From the IMG/VR virus record IMGVR_UViG_2660238446_000011: a stretch of 32,846 nucleotides of DNA. The stretch is one strand, 5' to 3'. Position 1 is the first letter of the stretch, and every line of letters begins with the position of its first letter. Source of the stretch: a virus. Its lineage: Duplodnaviria; Heunggongvirae; Uroviricota; Caudoviricetes. A model generated the notes under the pieces. The model saw only the letters and a list, made by a program, of their open reading frames with translations. It was not told the DNA's origin and did not search any database. Of the stretch, positions 1,459 through 6,232 are shown one piece after another. A program made the position numbers and the translations under genes.

Positions 1459-2622
1459 TTACACATCATTAGTACCTTCCTTATTTTTTGACTGGGACAA
1501 ATTTGGGACCGATGGGTTCAGGATCGAGTCTATTTGCCGTGCGTGTTCGGTAAGGTGATTAGGTGCAAGGTGAGCATATCGACGAACCATTTCGATAGAC
1601 TCCCAGCCTCCCATTTCCTGTAACACTGACAACGGGACTCCGGCTTGAACCAGCCAACTTGCCCAAGTGTGTCTCAAGTCGTGAAATCTGAAATCATCAA
1701 TACCAGCCCGTCTCAGCGCTGCTTTCCAGGCTGTGTTTGCGTCATACCGCATCTTCCTTACTGTTGGCGCTTTCGTTCCGTCTGGTTTGGTACAGCTTTC
1801 CTTGTACACAAATACCCAACGGTGATGATTCCCGATTTGTTTTTTCAAAACGCGACATGCAGTATCATTCAGCGCAACGCCGATTGCGCGGTTTGATTTA
1901 CTCTCTTCCGGGTTTATCCATGCCACCCGGCGCTGCATATCTATTTGTTGCCATTCAAGGTTGATGATGTTCGAGCGTCTTAAGCCTGTTGCCAGTGCAA
2001 ATTCAACAACAGACTTTAATGGCTCCGGACATTCATCAATCAGCCTTTGTGCTTCATGGGGCTCCAGCCAGCGGATCCGTTTATTCTTTGGTTGAGGCAC
2101 TTTAATAATTGGTGCCTTATCCAGCATTTTCCATTCACGCTCTGCGGCTCTTAGTAGGGCCTTTATAAATGAAAGATGCGTAGCCTTCGTTGCAACGGAC
2201 GCTGGTTTTGGCGTGTATTCTGGAACAGGTTTCCCTTTTTTTCTGCATGCTTCTGCCCTGAGTTTCCAGTTTTCCTCATGACGCCGGTTCGTCATTTTCT
2301 GCATTGCTGAATAAATTTTTGATTCAGTAATGTCTCTTAGTTGCATTCCTGCGAAATGTTGAAGCCAGAATCCGATCCGGCTTTTGTCATCGTCCAGTGA
2401 TTTTTTATGTGCTTTCTCTTCAAGCCACCTGACACACGCTTCCTCGAACGTTATATCAGGTATTTCACCAAGTTTGCTGACCCGCCATGCTTCAGCCTTT
2501 AGCTTGTCATGGAGTTCTGTCGCCTGCCTTTTGTCCTTTGTTCCAAGAGACTGTTTAAATCTTTTACCGTTCGGCAATGTGAAACTGGCGTACCATATTT
2601 CACCTCTGCGGAAGAGTGACAT
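1459..2622 (-). CDS. int: tyrosine site-specific integrase, P22 Int-like (387 aa)
   Basis: ORF translation [22 protein letters not shown]... with C-terminal R..HxxR..Y-type region ([17 protein letters not shown]...VRRYAHL); closely resembles P22 integrase as recalled; adjacent to the thrW 3' end, the P22 attachment tRNA. Confidence 0.93.
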
Positions 2623-2849: not shown

Positions 2850-3154
2850 TATTTCACCTCTTGCTGTGACATTGTTGAAAAATGGATACCAGCTCGTTGC
2901 TGCCAGACGATCCAACCGAGAGTCATATCCCATTCCATGTATTCGTTATCGCCGTTTTTTGCTCTCCGACGATCTACTAAGTCACCGAAACGCTTTTCCA
3001 TGAATAATTCATAAGCTTCGCGTTCATCTGGTTCTACTTCCAGAGATAGGAGTGCGATTTCATAAGCACGGCGCTCAATATCGTCTCGCACGTCAAGACT
3101 GCTGATACGCTCTTTAATTTCTTTAATCAGTTCTTTGTCGGTAAAAGTGGTCAT
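2849..3154 (-). CDS. hypothetical early-left protein (101 aa, acidic)
   Basis: ORF in operon orientation with xis/int, tightly packed with neighbours; no family recognised. Confidence 0.5.
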   Translation of the reverse strand: MTTFTDKELIKEIKERISSLDVRDDIERRAYEIALLSLEVEPDEREAYELFMEKRFGDLVDRRRAKNGDNEYMEWDMTLGWIVWQQRAGIHFSTMSQQEVK

Positions 3155-3516
3155 TATGCTCCAGCCTCCGGTGCTTTTGGCATTACTGCCCAGTGAGTGA
3201 TATTGACGTTTTCAAGGTCCCCGACCTGAAATGTCCACTGCCATTCTCCGGTTTCTTTTTGTCCCCAGGTGTACCAGAGAGAACGCCAGCCAATTAGCCA
3301 GCCTTCTCCTTTAGCATCGAATAACAAAACACTTTCATTTGCTGGTGGCAGTTCAGTTGGCATTGGTATTACTTTGTTTTCCTGTGCTGCACATTTAGCT
3401 TCAAGCGCATCGAATTTACGCACCAGGTATTCAGCATCTGTTTCATTTACTTTCAGATCTCGCGGTACACATCTCCCACGAAGAAACCCTTCCATTTCGA
3501 AAACATTCATGCGCAT
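3154..3516 (-). CDS. hypothetical phage early protein (120 aa), possibly DUF551-like
   Basis: ORF packed with overlapping start/stop between flanking genes; Trp-rich C-terminal region (WLIGWRSLWYTWGQKETGEWQW) reminiscent of DUF551 phage proteins; weak. Confidence 0.5.
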   Translation of the reverse strand: MRMNVFEMEGFLRGRCVPRDLKVNETDAEYLVRKFDALEAKCAAQENKVIPMPTELPPANESVLLFDAKGEGWLIGWRSLWYTWGQKETGEWQWTFQVGDLENVNITHWAVMPKAPEAGA

Positions 3517-4043
3517 TTGCGTAACTCCGATAACTCGTTAAAGCGTTCCATAAACATCCCGTAGGCATGGCCCGGTGCCAGTGGAATCACGTTGAACATC
3601 TCTGTTGCCGGGATACCTTCCAGTACAGGCCAGAAAGAGCCATCATCAAGCCCGAGATCGCGGCGTTCGGTTGCCAGCATGATGAGATCGGCATATTTCA
3701 CGGGCGTACTCATAACTGGGGGTAACCCGTATTTCTCACGGATTACGGCGTCTATTTTTTCTTCCATTTGTTTATAGTCAGGAAGAAGGCGTTTCAGTGG
3801 TGCGGGAATGTCCTGGCAATACGCTTCTGTTGCATCATGCATTAACGCTTCAAAAGCAAATTCCTGCGGCACCAGCTGGCTGCAAAGAACCGCATGTTGG
3901 GCGACGCTGTAGAAGTGCGAAAGATGACCGGCAAAGCGACAGATATTTGAAAGGGAAACCGCGATATCGTTAATATCGATGTCGTCTTTATTTATCCTGT
4001 CATAATAAAAATGCTTCCCGGAAAAAGTTTTAATAAATGACAT
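3507..4043 (-). CDS. HD-domain phosphohydrolase-like protein (YfdR-like), start at MSFIKTF
   Basis: Translation has H...HD...D metal-ligand pattern (CRFAGHLSHFYSVAQHAVL...LMHDATEAY) and resembles E. coli prophage protein YfdR as recalled. Confidence 0.7.
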   Translation of the reverse strand: MSFIKTFSGKHFYYDRINKDDIDINDIAVSLSNICRFAGHLSHFYSVAQHAVLCSQLVPQEFAFEALMHDATEAYCQDIPAPLKRLLPDYKQMEEKIDAVIREKYGLPPVMSTPVKYADLIMLATERRDLGLDDGSFWPVLEGIPATEMFNVIPLAPGHAYGMFMERFNELSELRKCA

Positions 4044-4100
4044 TTTGTTCTCCACGTATATGCGCTGCACCGCGCTGAATTCGGGTAAAAGGAAGCCCTC

Positions 4101-4500
4101 ACCGTCCGGCGATTATTGAGTCAATTACATTTCCATAAATGCCCCCGTAGGGGCGGTTAGTTTCTCCACAAAACAGAGAAGAACACCTGCGGTGGCAGCC
4201 GCCCGGATGGATTGGGTTATGAGCCCGTCGTCCGGTGATGCTCTTCTCTGTTTTGTAAAAAGGACGGTACCAGCCGGAAGCAAGGGTACAAGCTGGTACC
4301 GCCAAGACTACACACAGCATAAAGTTGTGGTGCCGGGCGCCTCCCGGTGCCTGGCGAAGGTTGCACACCAGGCGGGTGGGTATCCACAGAAGGTCGACTG
4401 TCAGCCTCAACCTTTACCCGCGTGCGCTGAGCCGCATTCACCACAACGCTAAGAATTCTCTCTGGTTGAAAATACTTAGCTGTTATGTGCCTGCTTTTAG
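4101..4500. ncRNA. GC-rich non-coding structured segment (candidate structured RNA or DNA structural site); strand undetermined
   Basis: No credible ORF (only short overlapping junk ORFs on both strands); hairpin GCCCCcgtaGGGGC 4141..4154; 15-bp perfect inverted repeat ACAAAACAGAGAAGA (4168..4182) / TCTTCTCTGTTTTGT (4242..4256) around a 59-nt GC-rich loop; hairpin GGTACCAGC(4266..4274)/GCTGGTACC(4292..4300). Confidence 0.35.
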
Positions 4501-4520
4501 CCACATCAGGCGAGGTGGAC

Positions 4521-4572
4521 CTGGTTATTCCCCAACAACAAGGATTCGGTTAATCTGGTTATCCCCAACAAC
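4521..4572 (+). repeat. tandem direct repeats CTGGTTAT(T)CCCCAACAAC x2 immediately upstream of the 4588 start codon
   Basis: Copies at 4521..4539 and 4555..4572 seen in sequence; possible regulator-binding or leader element. Confidence 0.6.
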
Positions 4573-4587
4573 GCAAAAGGAAAAGAA

Positions 4588-5022
4588 ATGTCCGGTAATA
4601 TCTATACGCTGTACAAATCCCACTGTGAAAATGTTGGAAAGTATCGGGGCATTGAAATCAGTGGGGTAGTGTCATCAGTCGAAATAAGCAAAGTTGAATC
4701 AAGGGCAACATTACTTACTCTTTTGGACCTTGTCTTACATGAGCACCGGAAGAAATTCGGCACTCCCTATAATCAGTTGAATGGGAAAAAGGCTCTGGTT
4801 CACCTTATTCTGATGAAGCATCACTGGATGCCAAAACAGATTAATGAGATGAAATTTGATGAACTTCTTCTTTCAATTCAGGATGAACTCACACTTGATA
4901 AAATAAGCGTAACCGCCCAGAAATTTTTAGATTATCGAGACTGGAGATCACAAATTCATCACTTTGATGATTTTGACGAAAATGAATGGGATCCTAATTT
5001 GTCTGCACAATATCTAAAGTAA
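4588..5022 (+). CDS. hypothetical protein (144 aa), cargo gene of unknown function
   Basis: ORF with purine-rich stretch (aaaaggaaaag) before the ATG; appears AT-rich relative to flanks by eye (not computed); opposite strand to the surrounding early-left operon; no family recognised. Confidence 0.6.
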   Translation: MSGNIYTLYKSHCENVGKYRGIEISGVVSSVEISKVESRATLLTLLDLVLHEHRKKFGTPYNQLNGKKALVHLILMKHHWMPKQINEMKFDELLLSIQDELTLDKISVTAQKFLDYRDWRSQIHHFDDFDENEWDPNLSAQYLK

Positions 5023-5200
5023 CATCCTGTGATAAAACCGTGATTTCCTGATCCAGTTTTTTTAAGGAGTCTATTGTTTCCTGTCGATAAGACAGCACTT
5101 CACGAAGCTGGTTTATAGCTGCCAGCTTCTTTGTCATCCACTCATAAATTTCCTCATCTGTGTAGCCAGGCGCGACGATTTTGGGTTCTGTTTTGTGCAT
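4994..5200 (-). CDS. small hypothetical protein (68 aa from MHKTEPKIVAPGY...), coiled-coil-like
   Basis: Strong GAGGAG Shine-Dalgarno 7 nt upstream of ATG at 5200; track ORF extends to a TTG at 5215; 3' end converges on and overlaps the 144-aa gene by about 29 nt. Confidence 0.5.
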   Translation of the reverse strand: MHKTEPKIVAPGYTDEEIYEWMTKKLAAINQLREVLSYRQETIDSLKKLDQEITVLSQDVTLDIVQTN

Positions 5201-5258
5201 TTCACATCTCCTCAAGTTATCAGTTACTTGTTGATGGGGACCAGATTGTTAAAGAGCT

Positions 5259-5283
5259 AAGCGTCCTGTAGGGCGCTTTTTTG
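5259..5283 (+). terminator. candidate intrinsic terminator (hairpin AGCGTCC-tgta-GGGCGCT followed by TTTTTT)
   Basis: Seen in sequence; stem has one G-U pair. Confidence 0.4.
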
Positions 5284-5448
5284 TTGCTAACGAATCATCC
5301 TGGACTTCATATGCCCCAGGCGGCTACTTCGTGGGCGTCCTGCCTGTTCGTTTTTGACATTTACTGACTGCTTACGACACATGCACCGTGTTGCAACCAG
5401 ATTTTGTTGTAATCCTGTAGTTGGTCTGGAACAAAAGATAAAATTAAA

Positions 5449-5485
5449 TTGCGAAATATGCAAGTGATGTTTGCGAAATATGCAA
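5449..5485. promoter_or_regulatory. putative OL operators: two copies of TTGCGAAATATGCAA
   Basis: Copies at 5449..5463 and 5471..5485; same TTGCG...GCAA half-site theme as the repressor/cro intergenic region. Confidence 0.45.
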
Positions 5486-5492
5486 ATTTATA

Positions 5493-5519
5493 GGTAATAA
5501 AAAGCCACCTTTCGGTGGC
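5493..5519 (-). terminator. intrinsic terminator downstream of the repressor gene (GCCACC-tttc-GGTGGC hairpin then T-run on the minus strand)
   Basis: Hairpin 5504..5519 preceded on the plus strand by AATAAAAA, i.e. followed by a U-run on the minus strand, just 3' of the repressor stop at 5540. Confidence 0.55.
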
Positions 5520-5539
5520 CGATGGATGGGATATTGAGG

Positions 5540-6232
5540 TTAATTATGTCTCTTAAGGGTTTGCGACTGACTGATTAAGACCTTTCCAAAGACCATGAAT
5601 CGGTGTTCGTTTTCGCTAGTAATTCCCCATTCACGGTAAATCTGGTTATCAGAAATCACCAGCAGTTTGTCAGGAATCATTTGAAGTCTTTTAACGTATA
5701 TTTTGTCATCAAAACCAAAGACATATATACCATCACCATCAAACTGATTGATGCTGACATCAACGAAGATGAGATCTCCTGGCTCAATGGTTGGACACAT
5801 ACTGTCCCCACGAACGTTGATAACTTTGATGTGATTGGCTGGTCGTCCGCCGAACATTGATACAGCATTATCAGTTCTGTATTCGATGGCATGAATCACA
5901 TCAATGACATCACCGCCCTGGATAAGGCCATTTCCCGCACTGGCACTGATATCCAGCATTTCAATACGGAACACATCCTTCACCTGCGCAACATCCTCAT
6001 TATTACTGTTTTTATATACAGTATTACTTTTGTGGGCAGAGGTAAAGAGATCAGCAATATCAACACCTAAGCTCTTGGCAATATTACTCAGTGTTTGTTC
6101 GGTAAATTGTTTTTGCTTACCCGTTTCTAAGCGCGAGATGTTCGCCGCATCTACTCCTATTGCTTCAGCGAGATCGGCGATTTTCATGTTCTTCGCTTGG
6201 CGAAGTTGTCTGACTCGGTTTCCTATGTTCAT
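5540..6232 (-). CDS. CI/C2-type prophage repressor (N-terminal HTH, C-terminal LexA-like S24 peptidase domain)
   Basis: N-terminus IADLAEAIGVDAANISRLETGK is an XRE-type HTH; C-terminus has a GDSM Ser motif and KRL Lys typical of self-cleaving S24 peptidases; divergent from the cro-like gene. Confidence 0.9.
   Translation of the reverse strand: MNIGNRVRQLRQAKNMKIADLAEAIGVDAANISRLETGKQKQFTEQTLSNIAKSLGVDIADLFTSAHKSNTVYKNSNNEDVAQVKDVFRIEMLDISASAGNGLIQGGDVIDVIHAIEYRTDNAVSMFGGRPANHIKVINVRGDSMCPTIEPGDLIFVDVSINQFDGDGIYVFGFDDKIYVKRLQMIPDKLLVISDNQIYREWGITSENEHRFMVFGKVLISQSQTLKRHN

Follow-up and report, generated by a model that had tools for sequence, protein, structure and literature searches.

A Convergent, 3'-Overlapping Gene Pair of Enterobacterial Prophages Is a Candidate Defense/Counter-Defense Module

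Results

The gene pair and its transcription signals

We analyzed a 32,846-nucleotide stretch of viral DNA (IMG/VR record IMGVR_UViG_2660238446_000011; Caudoviricetes), here called the window, which is a lambdoid prophage integrated beside proA at a tRNA gene (tRNA at 1369-1441). Our subject is a pair of small genes set between its early-left operon, on the minus strand, and its repressor gene. The larger encodes 144 amino acids (aa) on the plus strand, the smaller encodes 68 aa on the minus strand, and the two converge so that their coding sequences share their 3' ends. An earlier reading, made from the sequence alone, had given these coordinates, strands, and sizes together with a 29-nucleotide (nt) overlap, and all were confirmed. 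The pair and the signals around it are as follows.

4588..5022, plus strand: 144-aa gene with an ATG start, a candidate lysogen-expressed immunity gene (open reading frame [ORF]; NCBIfam NF033230, phrog_5286).
4577-4581, plus strand: Shine-Dalgarno-type AAGGA, 6 nt ahead of the ATG of the 144-aa gene.
4994..5200, minus strand: 68-aa gene, a candidate lytic-cycle antagonist of the 144-aa protein and the first ORF after the inferred leftward promoter, PL (ORF, Shine-Dalgarno sequence, phrog_1744).
5208..5213, minus strand: Shine-Dalgarno sequence GAGGAG, 7 nt ahead of the ATG of the 68-aa gene (read from the sequence).
4994..5022, both strands: 3'-3' overlap of the two coding sequences, 29 nt (from the coordinates).
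5259..5285, plus strand: intrinsic terminator for plus-strand transcripts, with an 8-bp stem (one G.U pair), loop TGTA, and then TTTTTTG (scan match).
5435..5485, minus strand: inferred PL, with -35 TTGCAT at 5463-5458, a 17-nt spacer, -10 TATCTT at 5440-5435, and two operator-like repeats TTGCGAAATATGCAA (by eye).

As the sequence-only reading had noted, the 144-aa gene runs opposite to the surrounding early-left operon, the flanking yfdR-like, cI-like, and integrase (int) genes all being on the minus strand, and it is AT rich: GC content is 0.35 to 0.42 across 4700-5100, within the gene pair, versus 0.53 to 0.59 in the segment to the left. The GAGGAG that this reading had assigned to the 68-aa gene was also confirmed, at 5213-5208. 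The longest frame of this gene opens at a TTG at 5215, and the 68 aa are counted from the ATG.

The putative leftward promoter is overlapped by TTGCGAAATATGCAA, an exact 15-nt direct repeat at 5449-5463 and 5471-5485. Judged from sequence features, the repeats and the promoter are likely the OL operators and PL; a simple consensus promoter scan made no call at this site. Repeats and promoter sit just past the terminator of the repressor gene (5503-5520). From the inferred PL down to position 5200 there is no ORF of at least 40 aa with a credible start. It is plausible, as had been claimed, that the 68-aa gene is the first gene of the PL transcript, PL itself being placed by eye. The companion expectation, that an N-like antiterminator should occupy the first PL position, found no support; the related phages SfV, SfII, and PhiR29_1 hold other, unrelated small genes there. 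A lambda N-type antiterminator was likewise rejected as an identity for the 68-aa protein, which, as the earlier reading had remarked, is not Arg rich (2 Arg in 68 residues; pI 4.8) and has no Pfam match reaching the cut-off.

The terminator at 5259-5285 is located past the start of the 68-aa gene, within the PL leader. Its fold energy is -12.6 kcal/mol on the plus strand versus -7.5 on the minus strand, where the G.U pair turns into a C.A mismatch and no U-run follows; by these features it is a terminator for the plus strand only. In PhiR29_1, the same terminator follows an unrelated plus-strand cargo gene. Given the position of the terminator, transcription that starts at the 144-aa gene would traverse the 68-aa gene from end to end in antisense orientation. 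With this and the convergent overlap, reading either gene necessarily means transcribing the other in antisense, and the earlier claim of antisense transcription holds.

Families of the two proteins

The 144-aa protein matches NCBIfam NF033230 ("ECs1072 family phage-associated protein," a name that implies no function) at 157.8 bits against a cut-off of 70, with residues 4-144 aligned to profile positions 2-142. It matches phrog_5286 end to end (residues 1-144; E = 1.5e-90), and this family takes in all 47 of its aligned relatives. The 68-aa protein matches phrog_1744, which has no function on record, over its full length (residues 1-68 of a 68-position profile; E = 6e-35). RefSeq annotates a coding sequence for both genes. 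Between the window and one of the fetched loci, which are designated here by L numbers (L005), the nonsynonymous (pN) and synonymous (pS) proportions are pN 0.32 and pS 0.78 for the 144-aa gene and pN 0.35 and pS 0.71 for the 68-aa gene, and in diverged homologues of both genes, nonsynonymous changes lie far below synonymous ones, the latter being saturated. End-to-end PHROG matches, the RefSeq annotation, and a pN well below pS mark the two ORFs as more than chance, and by the pattern of their sequence evolution both are real genes under purifying selection. Conservation as coding sequence had been set beforehand as the test able to refute the pair, and both genes show it.

A profile search of 1.84 billion representative proteins returned 76 relatives of the 144-aa protein, all stand-alone and about 145 to 155 aa long. 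Members whose source was checked come from Escherichia, Citrobacter, Enterobacter, Xenorhabdus, Edwardsiella, Erwinia, Pantoea, and Providencia, and Serratia and Shigella loci of the family are also among those fetched. Conserved residues are L50, R54, L64, G66, A69, H72, and an invariant W134. The AlphaFold model, made with a 47-sequence alignment, is all helical (pLDDT 94.7, pTM 0.89), and a fold search with it gave no significant match. The protein has a mass of 16.9 kDa, a pI of 6.4, a GRAVY of -0.47, and a maximum 19-residue hydropathy of 0.84; it is soluble and contains no hydrophobic segment. The 47 family members yielded no informative Pfam match and no PADLOC match, apart from a stray PAP2_C Pfam match in 1 of the 47 (E = 1.9e-4), and a HEPN-like Rx4-6H motif is absent from the family alignment.

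The acidic 68-aa protein carries an N-terminal motif, EP.I....S.EEL..W, and then an amphipathic, coiled-coil-like helix; its PDB matches are designed coiled coils only. Its homologues occur in Escherichia, Shigella, Serratia, Xenorhabdus, Erwinia, Providencia, Klebsiella, Citrobacter, Salmonella, and Arsenophonus. Searches of Pfam, NCBIfam, PADLOC, and PDB sequences with both proteins and with the family profiles gave nothing informative, and the PDB searches found no solved relative of either protein. The homology and structure searches that had been proposed for both proteins therefore end in families, phrog_5286/NF033230 and phrog_1744, neither of which has a defined role. No function is listed for either protein, both being entered only as hypothetical.

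A search of the literature for ECs1072, both RefSeq accessions, the PHROG identifiers, and NF033230 found a single microarray table entry: ECs1072 of O157:H7 Sakai is in a table of genes whose expression changes at a growth transition (PMC2241611). The passage on this signal mentions no phage-inducing treatment. The entry is a weak sign of possible expression, from one strand or the other, in a lysogen.

Linkage of the two genes across prophages

To describe the association of the two genes, we used 59 Enterobacterales prophage loci encoding a homologue of the large protein, three of them contributed by a profile scan of genome contigs with a narrow alignment, and detected the partner with a hidden Markov model (HMM) of the small protein. 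A partner homologue was found in 46 of the 59 loci, and in all 46 it lies on the opposite strand, converges on the large gene, and overlaps it at the 3' end by 29 to 203 nt. When the large proteins are clustered at 70% identity, 24 of the 30 clusters have a partner, 6 do not, and none is mixed. Identities of partner and large gene track each other (52/52%, 38/38%, and 25/29%).

The pair occurs in three operon contexts: the early-left operon beside an S24 repressor (cI), the gap of the late operon between Q or NinG and the holin/lysozyme genes, and the early Cox...gpA operon of one P2-like prophage. Marker genes, wherever found in these loci, never share the strand of the large gene. The large gene is antisense in the operon that carries its partner, and the transcription units overlap, which is the layout of a noncontiguous operon.

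The partners of early-type and late-type loci are homologous, as their profiles indicate: hhalign aligned them with a probability of 95% (E = 4e-8), compared with 0.4% for a reversed control. The first partner HMM, built from 4 early-type partners, gave the Serratia partner an E value of 1, and it was the profile-profile comparison with added members that resolved the homology. The protein motif is kept between early-type and late-type loci, though the DNA has diverged beyond recognition.

In late-type loci with longer overlaps (74 to 95 nt), W-D-P or a close variant occurs in both proteins, encoded on opposite strands by the palindromic TGGGATCCCA (for example, L011 4362-4435 and L099 3371-3459), the tryptophan being the invariant W134 of the large protein.

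The cassette that holds the pair is carried by 431 of 5,426 complete Escherichia coli genomes (~8%), with at least 80% of it present in 409 of the 431. Among the matches listed, 40 sampled down the ranking of the 431 genomes, none is to the partner only. Because the large gene stands alone in 6 of the 30 clusters and a partner on its own is unseen among close relatives, the large gene looks from this distribution like the one with the primary function and the small gene like an accessory. The cassette is also present in phages deposited as complete genomes, namely SfIV, Kati, vB_EcoS-569R4, and vB_EcoM-689R6, and is identical in the first three.

Leader, cassette, and neighboring segment

Further elements of the cassette are the following.

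4514..4572, plus strand: leader ahead of the 144-aa gene, in which the conserved TGnTAnnnT/inverted-repeat leader of the family is degenerate and ~33 nt are tandemly duplicated (direct repeats, leader comparison).
5228..5247, plus strand: inverted copy of the leader repeat, TTGTTGATGGGGACCAGATT, between the 68-aa gene start and the plus-strand terminator (inverted repeats).
4519..5288, both strands: exchangeable cassette comprising both genes, the repeats, and the plus-strand terminator (BLAST break points).

The large-gene start is preceded, at a distance of 36 to 50 nt, by an extended -10-like TGnTAnnnT (e.g., TGGTATCTT and TGATATTGT) in 22 of 27 representative loci. This motif is seen in both early-type and late-type loci (for example, L015 3955-4000, L104 2400-2446, and L011 3950-3991), and in SfV-like phages it has a weak -35-like TTTTCA 17 to 18 nt upstream. 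Its 3' half pairs with a sequence directly adjoining the ribosome-binding site, the two forming an inverted repeat, and the arms vary between lineages yet remain complementary; the repeat may be an operator or an RNA hairpin. SfV and SfII have the same type of leader ahead of unrelated cargo genes. In two late-type leaders (L098 2900-3000 and L105 2400-2490), two mutually exclusive hairpins, CAGCCA...TGGCTG and TCGAAGC...GCTTCG, can be discerned by eye, possibly forming an attenuator-type switch upstream of the large gene.

The window lineage is atypical, with a degenerate motif (TGgACCTGG), the ~33-nt leader duplication, whose copies are CTGGTTATTCCCCAACAAC at 4520-4540 and CTGGTTATCCCCAACAAC at 4553-4572, and the inverted copy at 5228-5247. 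A weak promoter for the 144-aa gene, TTCCCC-17 nt-TAATCT (4528-4556), is a possible reading of this sequence. The predicted duplex of the inverted copy with 4546-4580 has an energy of -25.2 kcal/mol, versus -11.2 +/- 3.1 in 500 shuffles. These repeats are copies of a ~20-nt leader motif, AATCTGGTTATCCCCAACAAC, duplicated in tandem before the 144-aa gene and inverted just before the plus-strand terminator. The same inverted pair brackets a different cargo gene in PhiR29_1 (L008 2868-2920 and 3455-3480), and it is at these repeats that homology breaks off.

BLAST comparison places the break points of the cassette at 4518 and 5289 against SfV (L006) and SfII (L007) and at 4572 and 5241 against PhiR29_1 (L008). 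On either side is backbone common to related phages, 4143-4518 on the left and 5289-5355 on the right. The SfV slot holds an 81-aa plus-strand ORF converging on orf33 with an 83-nt 3' overlap; the SfII slot holds SfII_36, on the plus strand, converging on a 68-aa minus-strand ORF with a 39-nt 3' overlap; and the PhiR29_1 slot holds a single plus-strand gene, whose coiled-coil product contains CxxC pairs. The replacement genes in all three slots are without a match to a known family. Every two-gene cassette examined in the slot (window, SfV, and SfII) is a convergent, 3'-overlapping pair. On the evidence of these alignments, the slot between the small RNA (sRNA)-like segment described below and the PL leader is a hotspot of cassette exchange.

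Outside the cassette, the window contains these neighboring features.

4143-4518, minus strand: STnc100-like structured segment, best model match at 4254-4477 (Rfam RF02076).
3507-4070, minus strand: yfdR-like HD phosphohydrolase, within the short early-left operon.
1459-2622, minus strand: integrase (int).
5540-6232, minus strand: cI-like S24 repressor, followed by a cro-like gene on the plus strand.

The sequence-only reading had set the gene pair next to a structured segment. That GC-rich segment proves to be conserved backbone. It aligns to the full Rfam model RF02076 (STnc100; positions 1-206) on the minus strand at 42.9 bits, below the gathering score of 47 (E = 1.5e-7), and a query spanning segment and pair finds a match in 3,053 of 5,426 complete E. 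coli genomes, versus 431 with the pair itself. STnc100 is related to PasD sRNAs according to a 2026 preprint. By position and strand, the STnc100-like segment is a separate element on the PL strand, outside the gene pair. A role as the 5' leader of the 144-aa gene was rejected, as the segment is backbone outside the cassette with its sRNA model on the opposite strand; its absence from the late-operon and P2-like loci also counts against that idea. PGAP calls a "frameshifted hypothetical protein" over ~4125-4444, which is probably spurious, and the possibility that the segment is a frameshifted yfdP was rejected, the real yfdP lying to its left in SfV, SfIV, and PhiR29_1.

The window prophage is without ~1.3 kb, containing yfdQ-like and yfdP-like genes, that is present in SfIV, SfV, and PhiR29_1. 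Compared with SfIV (L002), window 4000-4154 corresponds to 1546-1700, the next matching block is at 2993-4205, and the two blocks share 12 nt (window 4143-4154). This 12-nt overlap suggests that the loss was a deletion between short direct repeats.

Discussion

To address what the two genes do, we consider them as a unit, in relation to known systems, and against rival explanations. It is very probable that they constitute a conserved two-gene antisense module. That they are a functional unit and not chance neighbors is supported, at the level of gene arrangement, by the convergent 3' overlap, which recurs across three operon contexts and is present in 46 of the 59 loci.

We tentatively favor the reading, by analogy with the systems discussed below, that the 144-aa protein may be a lysogen-expressed immunity protein which the 68-aa protein, together with antisense transcription from PL, would switch off during the phage's own lytic growth; we regard this as a serious possibility that falls somewhat short of being probable. 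Both genes would form one mobile accessory module of temperate phages, arranged as a "noncontiguous operon." While the prophage is repressed, the 144-aa gene, backwards in the PL early-left operon, would be read from its own promoter, and its product would act as an immunity or superinfection exclusion protein, hindering some step in the lytic growth of incoming phages. In the lysogen, the plus-strand transcript, ending only at 5285, would be antisense to the whole 68-aa gene and help to hold down its leaky expression. Upon induction or a new infection, PL transcription would yield the 68-aa coiled-coil protein first, which would bind and neutralize the 144-aa protein, and transcription would then pass antisense through the 144-aa gene, damping its expression by collision or RNA pairing. 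Expression timing, antagonism between the proteins, and antiphage activity are what we infer here. In favor of this reading are the linkage of the genes, the parallel divergence of their proteins, the placement of the large gene against the lytic strand in three operon contexts, its occurrence without a partner in 6 of the 30 clusters, and the carriage of the cassette by phages deposited as complete genomes. The TGnTAnnnT leader of the family and the plus-strand terminator of the window would favor expression of the large gene in lysogens, to which the ECs1072 microarray entry adds a weak hint. With slightly more reserve, we further propose that phrog_5286 and phrog_1744 may be a previously unrecognized immunity/counter-immunity system of Enterobacterales prophages, with an immunity fold that has no known relative, and that the slot between sRNA and PL in SfV-like phages may be a hotspot of convergent, 3'-overlapping pairs.

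The closest parallel in logic is in phage phi80, where the Q-dependent late operon contains taiEcA in antisense orientation, next to a small counter-defense gene, atiEcA (PMC11364771). Phage phi80 lacking atiEcA is blocked by its own Tai (tail assembly inhibition) protein, and further such pairs on noncontiguous operons have been predicted (He et al., Nat Commun 2024, PMC11364771). Like Tai/Ati, the pair described here consists of an accessory gene of temperate enterobacterial phages set antisense in a lytic operon and an adjoining, overlapping small gene (~70 to 80 aa) in the lytic orientation, and its late-type loci use the same kind of late-operon site, downstream of Q. In both cases, the immunity gene has homologues that occur without the small partner; for Tai, there are only 5 Ati-like versions for 57 homologues. 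The proteins themselves are different: hhalign probabilities of 0.5% for the large protein against TaiEcA and 0.1% for the small protein against AtiEcA led us to reject homology, and Tai has 204 aa, compared with 144. The geometry differs as well, for the phi80 genes diverge with a 5' overlap and ati is downstream of tai in the late transcript, whereas here the genes converge with a 3' overlap and the partner is upstream.

In Staphylococcus aureus phage 80alpha, tha is inhibited by the "small overlapping antisense gene" ith (Rostol et al., Nat Microbiol 2024, PMC11087260). The likeness here is in the mutually exclusive expression states set by convergent transcription, which for our pair are proposed, and in a site beside the cI module. 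Roles on the two strands are exchanged, however. The immunity gene of 80alpha is carried by the cI operon, with its inhibitor inserted antisense; in our pair it is the immunity candidate that is inserted antisense, and the inhibitor would be carried by the lytic operon. Membership of the 144-aa protein in the family of Tha, a HEPN RNase whose catalytic motif is R..H, was rejected, as neither a HEPN fold match nor the Rx4-6H motif was found. Because the proteins are unrelated to Tai/Ati, are without the HEPN features of Tha, and have a different geometry, the likeness to Tai/Ati and Tha/Ith is one of logic, not of family membership.

An older parallel comes from the PL region of lambdoid phages, where sieB is an exclusion gene from which the phage escapes via a lytic-phase antisense transcript and a protein antagonist; sieB of P22 and lambda, with esc and the sas antisense RNA, was reportedly described by Ranade and Poteete in 1993. 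The proposed arrangement shares the exclusion-type gene in the PL region, the lytic antisense transcript, and the protein antagonist. It differs in that SieB is a membrane protein and Esc an internal translation product, while here the large protein is soluble and the antagonist would be a separate gene.

Toxin-antitoxin (TA) systems offer less. Type I systems of Bacillus subtilis prophage-like elements, txpA/RatA and bsrG/SR4, have convergent transcripts with a 3' overlap, a hydrophobic peptide toxin, and a noncoding antitoxin RNA. Convergent transcription with 3' overlap on prophage elements is the one feature in common, whereas here both partners are conserved soluble proteins and the large one, at 144 aa, has a GRAVY of -0.47. 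Type I membership was rejected, the large protein not being a small hydrophobic peptide and the antisense partner being protein coding, and so was type II membership, with genes on opposite strands and no Pfam, NCBIfam, or PADLOC TA domain in either protein. The sequence-only reading had offered a TA-like or an exclusion module; the TA half fits poorly with genes that are not cotranscribed and a soluble 17-kDa helical protein, and it is the exclusion half that we favor.

Several observations weigh against an immunity/counter-immunity pair. A recognizable partner is missing in 6 of the 30 clusters, and Escherichia albertii (L004) combines an intact large gene with a partner frameshifted in its C-terminal third. 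The geometry is not that of phi80, with its 5'-5' overlap and downstream ati. As the promoter-like motif ahead of the window's own 144-aa gene is degenerate (TGgACCTGG), expression of this copy in a lysogen is uncertain. The functional role of both proteins is one that we infer by analogy, and no likeness to a defense protein emerged from PADLOC, from hhalign against TaiEcA and AtiEcA, or from the search for the Rx4-6H motif. This last point is weak evidence, because the validated TaiEcA is itself nearly invisible to such searches, with no Pfam match and one weak PADLOC match (E = 0.004).

Other explanations can account for part of the data. The 144-aa gene could be a lysogeny-expressed accessory gene with a role other than defense, in host physiology or in prophage maintenance or induction, with the small gene as its lytic-phase regulator. 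The linkage and orientation fit this equally, the 144-aa protein has no recognizable enzymatic or defense domain, and a site beside the immunity region and the sRNA would suit a regulatory function. We consider it rather unlikely, as a dedicated lytic-only antagonist makes most sense where the large protein is harmful to lytic growth, and the presence of the module in three unrelated phage operons, including a P2-like one, argues against its belonging to the circuit of any one phage. Somewhat more improbable is a reversal of roles, in which the small coiled-coil protein would be a lytic effector of the host-takeover or Kil-like kind and the 144-aa protein its antidote in the lysogen, in the manner of a TA pair. 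Lambdoid phages elsewhere place small host-directed proteins at the first PL position, the small gene is first in the inferred PL transcript, and convergent overlap would serve this scheme too. Yet it is the large gene that occurs without its partner, in 6 of the 30 clusters, with the converse unseen among close relatives; the partner is the damaged gene in E. albertii; and the two genes are not cotranscribed and contain no TA domain that we could find.

Control could also operate at the RNA level only. The overlap would then matter just for interference between the two transcripts or their transcription, in the manner of type I systems, and the 68-aa protein would do something unrelated or have no function. 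Conservation of the 3' overlap fits this, the plus-strand transcript would span the entire small gene, and in 80alpha antisense transcription by itself contributes mildly (PMC11087260). We doubt this explanation strongly, since purifying selection acts on the protein product of the small ORF (pN 0.35 versus pS 0.71), its protein motif is kept across early-type and late-type loci whose DNA is unrecognizably diverged, and its identity tracks that of the large protein. Strongly disfavored, and by far the hardest to credit, is the explanation that the genes are unrelated neighbors whose overlap is a by-product of compact phage genomes. Short gene overlaps are indeed common in phages and neither protein has a known function, but the same families are adjacent, convergent, and overlapping in 24 of the 30 clusters and in three operon contexts, and the conservation of the partner's N-terminal motif outside the overlap argues against an artifact of translating the 3' end of the large gene.

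Prophage-encoded defenses must spare their own phage, and to our knowledge, few cognate off-switches have been described, such as Ati, Ith, the partner of Tab, and aba. The pair reported here has been known only as two hypothetical families, and neither their linkage nor their antisense placement in lytic operons was found in the literature searched. It occurs in ~8% of complete E. coli genomes as well as in prophages of at least 10 other enterobacterial genera, and it is a testable candidate for a new defense/counter-defense pair. If this is borne out, the 144-aa protein would be a new defense protein with a fold that lacks known relatives, and the 68-aa protein would be a small, specific protein inhibitor of it. 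The idea that overlapping pairs embedded antisense in lytic operons mark defense/counter-defense modules would gain support, and an antisense gene accompanied by a small, overlapping gene on the lytic strand would become a rule by which to search for new defense/anti-defense pairs.

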